Below are positions 1-46,738 of a stretch of DNA of 64,000 nt, one piece after another. Source of the DNA: Bacteroidota bacterium (GTDB lineage: Bacteria > Bacteroidota > Bacteroidia > Bacteroidales > UBA12077); contig JAYEKP010000083.1 in the NCBI GenBank assembly GCA_034661075.1, positions 220 to 64,219 on the forward strand. The letters run 5' to 3'. A program made the position numbers and the translations under genes. The notes beneath the pieces were generated by a model, which had not been told where the DNA came from, ran no database searches, and saw only the letters and a program-made list of their open reading frames with translations. Within the stretch, counting starts at the first letter, position 1; each line of letters begins with the position of its first letter.

Positions 1-642
1 AGCATTGCCAATCATGTACGTATACAAAAGCAAATACGTAAATATAATCAATTGTACAAATGGTTGAATAATCGTGATATTATTCCCGAAATCCGTCATA
101 CTGCATGTTCAGCAGCTGCAATAACTTATCCGCGTACCCGAATGGATATGGTGCGGGTTGGAATTTTACAGTATGGATTCTGGCCCACTCGCGAAACATT
201 TATTCAGTATATCCATAAAAGAATGGATAAAACAGATCCATTAATGCGCGTGTTGAGCTGGAAAAGTCAGATAATGTCTATTAAAAAAGTTAAAACGGGT
301 GAATTTGTTAGTTACGGAACTGCATATTTTGCTCAAGAAGAAAAAATAATTGCCATTGTTCCTGTTGGCTATTCGCATGGATACAGCCGTTCATTGAGTA
401 ATCAGGGACGTGTAATTATTGATGGACAGAGAGCACCGGTTATTGGAGTAGTAAATATGAATATGCTTATTGCTGATGTAACCCATATACCAGGGGTAAA
501 ACGTGGCGACGAAGTAATATTAATTGGCGTAGACAATGGAATTGAAATTACCCTGGCTTCATTTGCTGATTTTAACAATCAGTTAAATTATGAGTTATTG
601 GCCAGATTACCTATGAACATTCCACGAAAAGTAATAAATTAG
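1..642 (+). CDS. alr: alanine racemase, C-terminal part (5' end lies outside the window)
   Basis: Frame 1 is open from base 1 into the 52..642 ORF. The C-terminal barrel motifs VPVGYSHGYSR and RAPVIGVVNMNM are typical of Alr. Confidence 0.85.
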   Translation, partial: SIANHVRIQKQIRKYNQLYKWLNNRDIIPEIRHTACSAAAITYPRTRMDMVRVGILQYGFWPTRETFIQYIHKRMDKTDPLMRVLSWKSQIMSIKKVKTGEFVSYGTAYFAQEEKIIAIVPVGYSHGYSRSLSNQGRVIIDGQRAPVIGVVNMNMLIADVTHIPGVKRGDEVILIGVDNGIEITLASFADFNNQLNYELLARLPMNIPRKVIN

Positions 643-44179: not shown

Positions 44180-45526
44180 TTATATTACAATGATTTGATG
44201 GTCGATTAAAATAAATAGAATTAATAAAACGGAACTGTAAAATATATACCATTTTAGGGGAATATATTTTTTCGGTTTAATCCCTAATTTGAAGTAGTTG
44301 TAAGCCACTAAAATAATTTTAGATAAAAAGTAGGTCCCAATCGTTGCTACAGCTACTCCTGTTACTCCGTATTCTTTAACAAACCAGAGGCTTAAAAAGA
44401 TATTGACTAGGACTTCAAAAATGGAAACATACAATATCGTTCGAGTCTTTTTTAATCCGATAAGAATGGTGTGAGGAAATACCAGACGACTGGCAATAGC
44501 CAATAAGTAAACCACAAAAACGTCAGCACTACGGGTAAACTCTTCGTTAAAAACAAAGTGATAAATAGGTTTGGCAAATAACAACATAACAATGGTTAAC
44601 GGATACATAGAATGCATTATTCGCAGTGATTTACGTTTTAGAACATCAAGCGACTCAAGCACCTTTTTTTTGGTGGAAAATTCGGTGAGCATGGCCGAGC
44701 TTAAACCTGCCGCAAGCATTACCACAAATGGTAATTCCTTGGCTCCATAACGGAAAATAGCAAATCCATCAGCAGAATAATGTATAGAGACTACCAAACC
44801 ATCGATGTATTGTGCCGAACCACTAATTAACGTGCTAAAAATTAAAGGGGTTGCCAGGAAAAGAATCTCTTTCATATAAGAAAAAGATAATTTTATTTCG
44901 GCGTAATTATAAATTAACGTTAGCAACCAAATATTCCTTACAATAGAAACAAAGACCAAACCACGCAATGCCCAAACAATATTATATCCTAATAAAACCG
45001 GAGCCAGAACGGCTACCAGTTGTAAAGTGTAAGTGATGTAGGCGTAACTTATGGTGTTGCCCGATTTATTTTGAACCATGTAAATGTATTCGACCAGGCA
45101 GGCCGGGCTACTTAAGAAAATATACCAAAGCGTAACATTTAAAAGCGGTGCTTTCCCTTTAATACCAAATACCGAAAAGTTATTTTGTACGGCCAGTCCA
45201 ATAAAAAAAACAATTACACTGAAAACCAGTAAAAGTACAAAGATGTTAAAAATCTCAGGAGATTTGGAAAAGTTGCCATCCAGCTGTCCGCCAAATGTTT
45301 TGTTTTTTCTAAATAACGATAAAAAGGACTGAATTAAACCAGTTACCCAAAAGAATGTAGCAAAACTGGCCATAAATACAGATATTTCAAACAAACCGAT
45401 TTGTTCTTTTGATAGTCCTATTTTTGTAAAAACTATGGATATAATTAAAAAAGTAACAAACCGTAGAATGTTAAAAACCTGTAACCCGGCAATGTTATTA
45501 ACGTTTCTTTTAGGAGCTAACCACAC
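44180..45526 (-). CDS. MOP-superfamily oligosaccharide/polysaccharide flippase (Wzx-like)
   Basis: 448 aa with about 12-14 TM segments. Assigned from topology and general sequence pattern only. Confidence 0.6.
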   Translation of the reverse strand: MWLAPKRNVNNIAGLQVFNILRFVTFLIISIVFTKIGLSKEQIGLFEISVFMASFATFFWVTGLIQSFLSLFRKNKTFGGQLDGNFSKSPEIFNIFVLLLVFSVIVFFIGLAVQNNFSVFGIKGKAPLLNVTLWYIFLSSPACLVEYIYMVQNKSGNTISYAYITYTLQLVAVLAPVLLGYNIVWALRGLVFVSIVRNIWLLTLIYNYAEIKLSFSYMKEILFLATPLIFSTLISGSAQYIDGLVVSIHYSADGFAIFRYGAKELPFVVMLAAGLSSAMLTEFSTKKKVLESLDVLKRKSLRIMHSMYPLTIVMLLFAKPIYHFVFNEEFTRSADVFVVYLLAIASRLVFPHTILIGLKKTRTILYVSIFEVLVNIFLSLWFVKEYGVTGVAVATIGTYFLSKIILVAYNYFKLGIKPKKYIPLKWYIFYSSVLLILFILIDHQIIVI

Positions 45527-45630
45527 ACCAATAATATTTTAAAATTTAAGGGGCAAAAATACATGTAAACAATTGAATAAAAAATATTTTAACTTTTTTT
45601 AAATGATTAGTGGAATAAATTCTCACGTTT

Positions 45631-45663
45631 TTTGTATAAAATAAAATTTCTTGTTTATATTTG
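45631..45663 (+). promoter_or_regulatory. Bacteroidota-type promoter (-33 TTTG, -7 TATATTTG) for the tRNA-His locus
   Basis: TTTG at 45631-45634 and TATATTTG at 45656-45663, with a 21-nt spacer. The tRNA-like sequence starts 13 nt downstream. Confidence 0.5.
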
Positions 45664-45675
45664 CAGTCCTAAAAT

Positions 45676-45804
45676 GGTGGATGTAGCTTAGTTTGGTGCC
45701 GAAAAATTTGAAATCTTTGATTTCATTCATTTTCCGAGCATTCTCGAAAAACCAGCAAAGCAAAGCTTTTAGGTTTTTCGGAATTAGAGCACCGGATTGT
45801 GGTT
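45676..45804 (+). pseudogene. tRNA-His 5'-half copy (acceptor 5' strand, D arm, anticodon stem 5' strand plus GTG loop), interrupted in the D loop and lacking the T arm and 3' acceptor strand
   Basis: 45676-45697 GGTGGATGTAGCTTAGTTTGGT and 45784-45804 TTAGAGCACCGGATTGTGGTT differ from the intact gene at 45837 by only three substitutions and one 1-nt indel. No 3' half is present. Confidence 0.6.
45699..45781 (+). other. structured roughly 87-nt insert inside the tRNA-His-like D loop
   Basis: The closing helix CCGAAAAA/TTTTTCGG encloses three hairpins: TGAAATC-TTT-GATTTCA (45709-45725), TTTTCCGAG-CATT-CTCGAAAA (45730-45750) and AAAGC-AAA-GCTTT (45757-45769). Confidence 0.45.
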
Positions 45805-45836
45805 AGAAGTAAACCTTAAGTTCTTAAATATTATAT

Positions 45837-45911
45837 GGTGGATGTAGCTCAGTCGGTTAGAGCACTGGATTGTGGTTCCAGGGGTCGTGGGTTCGAGTCC
45901 CATCTTCCACC
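45837..45911 (+). tRNA. tRNA-His (anticodon GTG) with encoded G-1
   Basis: A manual cloverleaf gives G-1, acceptor GTGGATG/CTTCCAC (one T-T mismatch), D arm GCTC/GAGC, anticodon arm CTGGA-TTGTGGT-TCCAG, T arm GTGGG-TTCGAGT-CCCAT and discriminator C. Confidence 0.92.
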
Positions 45912-45918
45912 CAACTTC

Positions 45919-45942
45919 AAGCTCCTGACAAGGAGCTTTTTT
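45919..45942. terminator. terminator hairpin after tRNA-His, abutting the stop codon of the convergent trmH-family gene
   Basis: AAGCTCCT-GACA-AGGAGCTT followed by a T6 tract. Confidence 0.7.
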
Positions 45943-46738
45943 ATTGCTTAAAATCTCGTTGTCGCATAGCCTCAAAAACCAGAATGGCTGTTGAGGTTGA
46001 AACGTTTAATGAGTCGATGGCTCCACGCATAGGGATAATAATTTGTTCATCGGTATTTTTTAGCCATTTTTCGGTTAGCCCGAATGCTTCAGTGCCCATA
46101 ACAATAGCCGTTGGGCCTTTATAATCTTTTTGATGATAATTTTCAGTAGCTGTTAACGAAGCGGCATACGTTTTAATTTTATTTTCTTTAAGCCATGTAA
46201 TAGCTATATCAGAAGAACATGCGACAACCTGAGTAGTAAAAACACAGCCAATACTCGACCGAATCACATTCGGATTATAAATATCGGTTAATGGATCGGA
46301 AATAACTACCGCATCAACATGGGCAGCATCAGCAGTGCGTAATATGGCTCCCATGTTGCCCGGTTTTTCAACCGACTCCAACACAATAATTAACGGATTC
46401 TTTTGTAACGTAAGCTCATTTAATGTAAGATATTTTGGTTCGCCCAGCGCAATTAACCCTTCGGTAGAACCACGATAGGCCAGTTTTTTATAAACATCAA
46501 GGCTGATTTCAAAAATCGAAGATATTGGATGGAAACGTTTAATAATTTCATCTTCGGATATAATTTCCGCACAAAAAAAAATTGATTTTATTTGCATACC
46601 GGATTGTAGTGCCAGCGTTATTTCTCGGAGTCCTTCAATAACAATAAGGTTTTGCTTCTTACGCTCCGATGATTTTTGTTGTAATCTCAGAATATTTTTA
46701 ATTTTCGGATTTTGGACGCTGGTAATTTGTTCGGCCAT
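45941..46738 (-). CDS. TrmH/SpoU family RNA 2'-O-methyltransferase
   Basis: 265 aa with an N-terminal substrate-binding domain plus SPOUT motifs (LESVEKPGNMGAILRTADA, IIPMRGAIDSLNVS). Confidence 0.85.
   Translation of the reverse strand: MAEQITSVQNPKIKNILRLQQKSSERKKQNLIVIEGLREITLALQSGMQIKSIFFCAEIISEDEIIKRFHPISSIFEISLDVYKKLAYRGSTEGLIALGEPKYLTLNELTLQKNPLIIVLESVEKPGNMGAILRTADAAHVDAVVISDPLTDIYNPNVIRSSIGCVFTTQVVACSSDIAITWLKENKIKTYAASLTATENYHQKDYKGPTAIVMGTEAFGLTEKWLKNTDEQIIIPMRGAIDSLNVSTSTAILVFEAMRQRDFKQ

Follow-up and report, generated by a model that had tools for sequence, protein, structure and literature searches.

Immediately upstream of the tRNA-His gene of a Bacteroidota bacterium (Bacteroidales, UBA12077; assembly GCA_034661075.1, contig JAYEKP010000083.1, positions 220 to 64,219), a partial copy of the 5' half of the same tRNA lies between the gene and its promoter, and the D loop of this copy is split by a structured insert. 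What is this insert, and why is it accompanied by half of a tRNA gene? Our combined findings suggest that we are looking at a slowly decaying copy, devoid of genes, of a small selfish DNA cassette whose targets are tRNA genes of Bacteroidota, a reading to which we assign a probability of about 0.65. The cassette family is widespread and apparently undescribed, and the copy found here is an ordinary decaying one. As we envisage it, the cassette would consist of three parts: a double-hairpin palindromic module in the loop of a partial 5' tRNA copy; a spacer, which in autonomous versions at tRNA-Pro would hold a gene for a GIY-YIG nuclease of the UPF0213/Slx1 branch; and a second tRNA 5' segment that would fuse to the resident gene, so that an intact tRNA is kept. 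The analysed stretch of 64,000 nucleotides is referred to below as the window, and positions are those within it. The locus is laid out as follows:

45631..45663, + strand: Bacteroidota-type promoter, native to tRNA-His, with a -33 element TTTG (45631-45634) and a -7 element TATATTTG (45656-45663)
45676..45696, + strand: segment a, the left direct repeat (tRNA-His G-1, acceptor 5' strand, D-stem 5' strand and start of the D loop)
45697..45740, + strand: module hairpin HP1, with basal stem TGCCG/CG(A)GCA containing a bulged base, and upper hairpin GAAATC-TTT-GATTTC
45741..45784, + strand: module hairpin HP2, with basal stem TTC(T)CGAAAAACC/GGTTTTTCGGAA and upper hairpin AAAGC-AAA-GCTTT, then a terminal T
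45785..45804, + strand: segment b', tRNA-His positions 21-39 (rest of the D loop, D-stem 3' strand, anticodon-stem 5' strand and GTG loop)
45805..45836, + strand: spacer of 32 nt without a promoter motif, in the same place as the GIY-YIG reading frame of long tRNA-Pro units
45837..45912, + strand: intact tRNA-His(GTG) with encoded G-1 (ARAGORN; Rfam tRNA, 66.4 bits), the first 22 nt of which form the right direct repeat
45919..45944, + strand: intrinsic terminator with an 8-bp stem (stem region 45919-45938), a 4-nt loop and a T run

The half-copy starts at 45676, 13 nt downstream of the promoter, spans 45676-45804 and corresponds to tRNA-His positions -1 to 39. Its homology ends directly after the anticodon loop, and it has neither a T arm nor a 3' acceptor strand; sequence reading and alignment both bear out a preliminary description of the locus on these points. 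When aligned to the intact gene, the 5' part of the half-copy (45676-45697, against G-1 to about position 20 at 45837-45858) differs by 2 substitutions and a 1-nt indel, and segment b' is identical to 45859-45878 at 19 of 20 positions; the upstream half-copy carries the substitutions T13 and C28. The insert in its D loop, previously put at 87 nt, is indeed present and measures 88 nt (45697-45784), the T at either end being ambiguous.

The intact tRNA-His is located 32 nt after the half-copy and 54 nt past the module. As had been stated, it has no recognisable promoter of its own: the only match to TAnnTTTG within 45560-45850 is TATATTTG, ahead of the half-copy, and this promoter is kept in relatives both with and without the insert. 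The terminator that had been placed after tRNA-His is also there, as a stem followed by a T run, and is conserved in relatives via compensatory changes. ARAGORN and Rfam, two of the tools that had been recommended for checking this region, called a single tRNA gene in the window, tRNA-His(GTG) at 45838-45912, and 45676-45804 was not called as a tRNA (RF00005) by ARAGORN, or by Rfam even at E ≤ 10.

The module hairpins are DNA-level palindromes

We searched metagenome contigs with a degenerate pattern derived from the conserved 3' hairpin of the insert and obtained at least 120 loci; about half of the pattern matches, among the matches listed, were clearly homologous. The fetched loci contain 94 non-overlapping modules; further copies of the insert, for which a search had been advised, do exist. 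From 25 metagenomic copies, with the window and its orthologues left out, a covariance model (R1) was built. R1 matches the window insert along all 88 model positions (1-88), scoring 73.4 bits on the + strand (45697-45784) and 82.7 bits on the - strand (45696-45783), with E ~1e-13. This is its sole match in the 64-kb window, where neither a repeat search nor a 3-mismatch pattern search detected a second copy of the module.

The family consensus reads (G)TCCCGA - variable stem-loop - TCG(A/T)GGA / TCC(T/A)CGAAAAAC - variable stem-loop - GTTTTTCGGGA-T, and describes two abutting mirror-image hairpins around a central GGATCC dyad, with one bulged base each. The basal stems of the family follow (T)xCCGA / TCG(N)Gxx and TxC(N)CGA / TCGGxA, and those of the window, TGCCGA..CCG(A)GCA and TTC(T)CGA..TCGGAA, conform to them. 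The ends of the window module, TGCCGAAAAA and TTTTTCGGAA(T), are inverted repeats of the terminal type seen in MITEs (miniature inverted-repeat transposable elements); the corresponding consensus ends are TCCCGA...TCGGGA.

The insert had been folded by eye into a closing helix around three hairpins. Covariation and DNA folding instead favour the two abutting hairpins. HP1 was delineated from the minimum-free-energy DNA fold, the R1 match and family covariation in helices 1-2. The evidence for HP2 consists of the R1 match, the DNA fold, the pattern match and comparison with the family consensus, relative to which a TCC/GGA to TTC/GAA change is compensated on both sides. In the 25-sequence alignment, both sides change in 22 of 36 pairs, and 95.5% of cells are paired, compared with 79% in shuffles and at most 60% with slid partners. 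Folded as DNA, the isolated window module forms exactly the hairpins 45697-45740 and 45741-45783 (z = -3.9). From this value and the independent R1 match, the structure of the window insert is not due to chance. A four-way junction, made of the closing helix and three hairpins, fits 94% of cells and is broken where the two-hairpin fold is compensated; it was rejected except as an alternative conformer, in which the same palindromic pieces are re-paired.

A selected RNA structure is expected to tolerate G.U pairs and to avoid A.C on one strand. The stem pairs of 56 distinct modules (~1580 positions) comprise 1546 Watson-Crick pairs, 18 G.U and 17 A.C, and R1 matches both strands in every family copy. 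Since G.U and A.C are equally and very rare, complementarity is maintained in the DNA, and the module hairpins are thus palindromes at the DNA level and not an RNA motif. This agrees with their two-fold symmetry and with the occurrence of the module in either orientation relative to the tRNA. An RNA-motif reading, which would call for strand-specific pairing, was rejected on the symmetry of the two mismatch classes together with the two-strand R1 matches.

At its gathering threshold, Rfam 15 found only the tRNA in the window; the insert had no credible match at E ≤ 10, and consensus-like copies in five other loci (L105, L128, L172, L212 and L096) had none at E ≤ 0.1. A full-text literature search found no published description of the module or of the cassette architecture. 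The earlier statement that no described element matches therefore held for Rfam and for the literature searched. Viral contigs scanned for the module pattern gave 0 matches, and thus nothing points to a phage origin.

tRNA-linked units and a small GIY-YIG nuclease

Where do the other modules reside? We found 54 of the 94 inside a 5' partial tRNA copy, with tRNA-Pro, His, Met, Ile, Phe, Arg and Asp as the types concerned; 43 of these are followed within 450 nt by an intact tRNA, and the remaining 11 are situated at contig ends, with a tRNA 5' flank. The flank upstream of the module in such tRNA-linked units is identical to the leading 17 or 21 nt of the downstream tRNA, and the sequence after the module resumes exactly at that point. 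The b' segment ends at approximately positions 28-42 in nearly all units, and at about position 64 in a tRNA-Arg unit (L150). The window shows this same arrangement, a clean module in the loop of a 5' partial copy, like 43 other units; here segment a corresponds to tRNA positions 0-17/21 and b' to 20-41. None of the D-loop sites in tRNA copies showed a target-site duplication. Units are commonly arrayed in tandem, two or three at a time, and near-identical copies with different flanks occur within one metagenome sample.

The other 40 modules are located in short intergenic regions, where their flanking direct repeats have a mean length of 3.24 nt, compared with 1.67 ± 0.25 in permutations. Several of these non-tRNA modules (L180:7028-7098, L192:1198-1270, L093/L096/L186 and L140:985-1049) lie within genome-specific 7-nt arrays (cacccgg, tcatcgt, cagtctt), and some of the array words resemble the terminal heptamer of the module, GTCCCGA.

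At tRNA-Pro, long units of ~380 nt have, at the position of the spacer, an open reading frame (ORF) of 87-90 aa with a GIY-YIG domain (Pfam PF01541, E = 1.2e-15); 19 matches to this ORF were found between module and tRNA-Pro, in 17 loci. The ORF starts ~20 nt past the module and its stop codon falls in the tRNA D loop, with the C-terminus, FRGIAQ(S/P)G, being encoded by the tRNA 5' end. Protein-first look-ups, which are independent of the DNA pattern, again returned the order module, ORF, tRNA-Pro; among the loci so found are tandem units, an 88-nt direct repeat and a module variant rich in GC. In these look-ups the module always lies ~20 nt before the ORF start, even in its divergent GC-rich form, which suggests that module and GIY-YIG gene travel together.

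The protein of the long units is a catalytic domain of ~90 aa from the UPF0213/Slx1 branch, without a DNA-binding domain. Its closest solved structures are the UPF0213 entries 1zg2 (E = 1e-4) and 1ywl (E = 3e-4), with Slx1 (6seh) at E = 0.056, and the small GIY-YIG family comprises 5,843 cluster representatives at E ≤ 1e-3. The ORF calls of 37 of the 169 homologues that we retrieved run into tRNA-like sequence. Among proteins P0020-P0169, some calls open with translated tRNA T arms (..GSNP.., ..RVRISP.., ..WFES..) and others close with translated tRNA 5' ends (..VAQPG, ..GVEQPGSSPG, ..GEVAEWSKAA); one (P0161) reads through a whole upstream tRNA-His, in an arrangement that differs from the cassette.

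GIY-YIG genes also adjoin tRNA genes at more distant loci. In a tRNA-Ser(CGA) cassette (L212:268-741), the ORF is bracketed by a 40-nt direct repeat of tRNA positions -1..35, the left copy of which has a different abutting hairpin pair (z = -8.1) inserted into the anticodon loop, after which the tRNA sequence continues with AAAACCG. A 3'-side version was found in L211:402-830, and also in L209 and L210: here the ORF lies directly downstream of an intact tRNA-Met and is followed by a hairpin, GTCCCGATACAGAATCGGGA (TCCCGA...TCGGGA), and a 29-nt repeat of the tRNA 3' end, with two GIY-YIG ORFs in tandem in L210. R1 gave no match on these distant loci (L209-L212), whose hairpins differ.

Some tRNA-linked loci have further features. 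In L087:1995-2295, L139, L167 and L201, a module-bearing pseudo-tRNA-Ile lies upstream of a tRNA-Ile(GAT)/tRNA-Ala(TGC) pair, a pair usually met in the spacers of rRNA operons. A second type of small hairpin repeat, (t)ccgccttcgccaaggcttcggcgg(a), is present just upstream of tRNA-Pro units (L098, L105:1040-1110(-), L141 and L202:1330-1362), and a third hairpin type, CCTGCCTGCCGACAGGCAGG, occurs within pseudo-tRNA segments of L190, L168 and L184. A contig with tandem tRNA-Pro units also has a match to the Group II catalytic intron of Rfam (RF00029, 62 bits; L128:1701-1776(-)).

Decay and loss at the tRNA-His locus

Related loci were recovered from uncultured Bacteroidales genomes via the flanking SpoU protein, and tRNA-His adjoins SpoU in 17 of them. 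The comparison of tRNA-His loci, which the preliminary description had called for, gave a divided result: the extra unit is present in three relatives (L002, L018 and L014), and 13 of the 17 loci have a plain promoter-tRNA layout. One relative, L004, is an exact empty site. The carriers differ from one another. L002 has lost 45 nt of the insert through an internal deletion of about half of the module, and its pseudo-anticodon is now AAG. L018 lacks b', which covers the anticodon arm. L014 has the locus in inverted orientation with respect to SpoU, and its half-copy agrees with its own variant of tRNA-His. The derived substitutions of the half-copy, among them those in segment a, are common to the window and L002; the 3' part of the spacer, AAGTTCTTAAA(A)TAyTAwA(T), is common to the window, L002 and L018; and compensated changes among the window, L014 and L018 preserve the stems of the module.

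In a rough SpoU tree, L018, the window, L002 and L004 fall together, and L014 is placed elsewhere, in a different clade. The pattern of presence, deletion and absence fits a single old gain that was followed by decay and by one precise loss, together with either a second gain or a transfer. The high identity of the half-copy had been taken as an argument against an ancient duplicate. It is not a sign of youth, since the unit is common to three genomes whose flanking SpoU proteins are only 75-83% identical, and the derived substitutions are common to the window and L002.

The sole other contig with an identical SpoU protein (L001, Logan contig SRR26901925_58313) is short and ends within tRNA-His at the equivalent of window position 45865, perhaps where the assembly broke at the duplicated segment of the tRNA. 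The neighbours of tRNA-His in the window are housekeeping genes, coding for an aminotransferase, a BaxI-like protein, a membrane protein, the SpoU methyltransferase, a GNAT protein and a peptidase C26 family protein. A 448-aa membrane-protein-like ORF at 44180-45526(-) diverges from the tRNA-His promoter and has no Pfam match at E ≤ 1e-3.

A proposed selfish cassette and its alternatives

How would such a cassette enter a tRNA gene? The order promoter, a, module, b', spacer, a-b-c is what would be expected from a circular or donor copy recombining within segment a. Unequal exchange between the a repeats would yield either tandem arrays or precise loss, and both outcomes were observed. In the window, the single promoter would give one precursor containing the pseudo-half, the module, the spacer and tRNA-His, from which RNase P, cleaving 5' of G-1 at 45837, would remove a leader of ~160 nt. 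The hairpins are probably the cis site of the structure-specific nuclease of autonomous relatives, which is the weakest step of this proposal. We also raise, tentatively and as something we would sooner bet against, the possibility that the module and the ~90-aa UPF0213/Slx1-like nuclease make up an undescribed class of miniature mobile element. Such a nuclease would act on two-fold symmetric hairpin or junction DNA, home to tRNA loops, heal its target with the carried 5' segment and leave ORF-less hairpin derivatives, like that of the window, across Bacteroidota.

Several of our findings weigh against the cassette interpretation. There is no GIY-YIG ORF in any frame of the 64-kb window, the single module copy in which is a short form and not an autonomous one, and no tRNA-His unit with such an ORF was found among the 169 retrieved homologues. 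For this last reason the link between short and long forms is one of architecture only, and their relationship is the least secure step of the interpretation. Short forms as simple deletions of long tRNA-Pro forms are ruled out, as the short forms keep positions 31-39 and the long forms end at ~30. The direct repeats flanking intergenic copies are irregular in length and offset, and often lie within arrays with a 7-nt period. The orientation of the window module relative to the tRNA is ambiguous, it is inverted in L172, and it is not fixed across the family. In addition, selection on structure, rather than separate insertions, could lie behind the compensated stems in the window, L014 and L018.

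The alternative that survives best, although we consider it unlikely, is that a MITE-like palindrome inserted alone into the D loop of a dispensable upstream duplicate of tRNA-His, the 3' half of which was later deleted, with the GIY-YIG genes at tRNA-Pro being unrelated secondary insertions. A similar scenario, a small non-autonomous element in one member of a tandem pair followed by deletion, had been offered at the outset, and its first half stands, the insert being a member of a large repeat family. The 40 intergenic modules with short flanking repeats indicate that the module exists without tRNA parts, and its insertion is clean relative to the tRNA sequence. Furthermore, the tRNA-Arg unit in which the upstream copy extends to position 64 resembles a fuller duplicate, and pseudo-copies also gather other small hairpin inserts (L190, L168 and L199). 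However, duplication, insertion and deletion would have to recur at seven tRNA types, with endpoints almost always in the anticodon stem or loop. The scenario also accounts poorly for the nuclease, the gene for which occupies the gap at tRNA-Pro and is preceded at ~20 nt by the module in all protein-first look-ups. We saw no case of a complete tRNA interrupted by a module in the D loop next to a separate intact copy.

A dedicated tRNA-like leader RNA, which would modulate the processing, folding or expression of tRNA-His (for example through competition for the 3' acceptor strand or through binding of RNase P or histidyl-tRNA synthetase), had been put forward as well, and we regard it as improbable. 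It would account for the single promoter serving half-copy and tRNA-His, and for the compensated stem changes among the window, L014 and L018. In the minimum-free-energy fold of the putative precursor (45664-45915), moreover, the acceptor 5' strand of the upstream copy is predicted to pair with the 3' acceptor strand of the real tRNA, and by this pairing the leader could compete with correct folding of tRNA-His. Yet the stems show no excess of G.U over A.C and R1 matches both strands, the 13 plain loci do without a leader, and the orthologous copies differ by large deletions (half of the module in L002, b' in L018). The same module is also found at intergenic sites away from tRNA genes and in either orientation.

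Might the half-copy be the leftover attachment (att) site of a phage or integrative element that used tRNA-His and has since been lost? A partial tRNA duplicate beside an intact tRNA is the classic signature of integration, and the anticodon loop, in which the homology ends, is known as a position of crossover. We nonetheless judge this very improbable. The duplicate is a 5' half, lies upstream and is merely 32 nt away, whereas an att remnant would be a 3' segment accompanied by an integrase. The preliminary description was right that no integrase is nearby: the neighbours of the tRNA-His locus include no integrase or other mobile gene, and no large integrase-bearing element separates tRNA-His copies in the 17 syntenic loci. 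An att origin would also leave the D-loop module and its family unexplained, and the scan of viral contigs was empty. One paper (van der Gulik et al., doi 10.1101/2022.07.05.498093) treats fragments of tRNA genes that arise from element integration, in general terms only.

An interrupted or split tRNA gene, with an intron-like insert excised from the D loop in the RNA, or with the half-copy as one part of a split tRNA, can be dismissed for practical purposes despite the clean placement in a tRNA loop and a two-fold symmetric structure whose two bulges superficially resemble a bulge-helix-bulge, because the half-copy has no 3' half from which splicing could yield a tRNA, an intact gene is adjacent, Rfam gives no intron or ribozyme match and the palindromes are DNA-level.

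The cassette interpretation can be set beside known systems. Like the integrative elements that target tRNA genes (phages, integrative and conjugative elements and genomic islands with tyrosine integrases), the cassette is bracketed by a direct repeat of partial tRNA sequence with a boundary in the anticodon loop, preserves an intact tRNA and restores the plain gene upon loss. It differs in that it duplicates the 5' rather than the 3' part, in its unit length of 160-380 bp rather than kilobases, in the palindromic module inside the displaced copy, and in the absence of an integrase, the gene, if present, being a GIY-YIG gene. SegB of phage T4 is reported as a free-standing GIY-YIG homing endonuclease gene in the tRNA gene cluster (PMC2330249). 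The likeness to such genes lies in a small nuclease gene at or in tRNA genes, an insertion of selfish type and a patchy distribution. The long units, in contrast, lie in chromosomes between tRNA repeats, are coupled to a hairpin module and code for the catalytic domain alone, and the window copy has no ORF.

The short form is also similar to repetitive extragenic palindromes (REPs), to the bacterial interspersed mosaic elements (BIMEs) and REP doublets (REPINs) that they form, and to the MITEs and palindrome-associated transposable elements (PATEs) of the IS200/IS605 family. All are short multicopy intergenic palindromes with bulged hairpins, are maintained as DNA structures and probably depend on mobilisation in trans. 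However, the module consists of two mirror-image hairpins around a GGATCC dyad and prefers the loops of tRNA copies (54 of 94), the associated nuclease is GIY-YIG and not HUH (RAYT/TnpA), and no regular target-site duplication was seen.

Folded single-strand sites, such as attC of integrons and attP of the CTX phage, keep structure over sequence and have fixed extrahelical bases, and integron cassettes are arrayed behind a single promoter; the resemblance of the module to these sites is a lead only, as it lacks RYYYAAC/GTTRRRY motifs and its cargo is at most one nuclease gene. The UPF0213/YhbQ and Slx1 structure-specific nucleases provide the best solved-structure matches of the cassette nuclease. 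To our knowledge, no function has been established for bacterial UPF0213 proteins, and the literature that we searched describes no link between them and hairpin repeats or tRNA genes. Judged from its sequence features, the element seems to act like a tRNA-targeting integrative element or homing gene, and its short form like a REP or MITE, yet it misses defining features of each.

What does this mean for the bacterium? The element reads as selfish, and we see no sign of a service to the host. Its consequence in the window is small: tRNA-His is probably transcribed with a 160-nt junk leader that RNase P removes. The family as a whole shows a recurrent route by which a tiny selfish element can enter essential single-copy tRNA genes, made non-lethal by the 5' duplication. 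It accounts for a class of incomplete tRNA sequences and of ORFs running into tRNA genes, both of which mislead annotation and interrupt assemblies. Through it, a large and uncharacterised set of small GIY-YIG proteins is also physically connected with tRNA genes and with a specific palindromic DNA structure, and this pair of DNA hairpins is a concrete candidate substrate for nucleases of the UPF0213/YhbQ type. If module and nuclease do form a miniature mobile element, bacterial UPF0213 proteins would gain a function.

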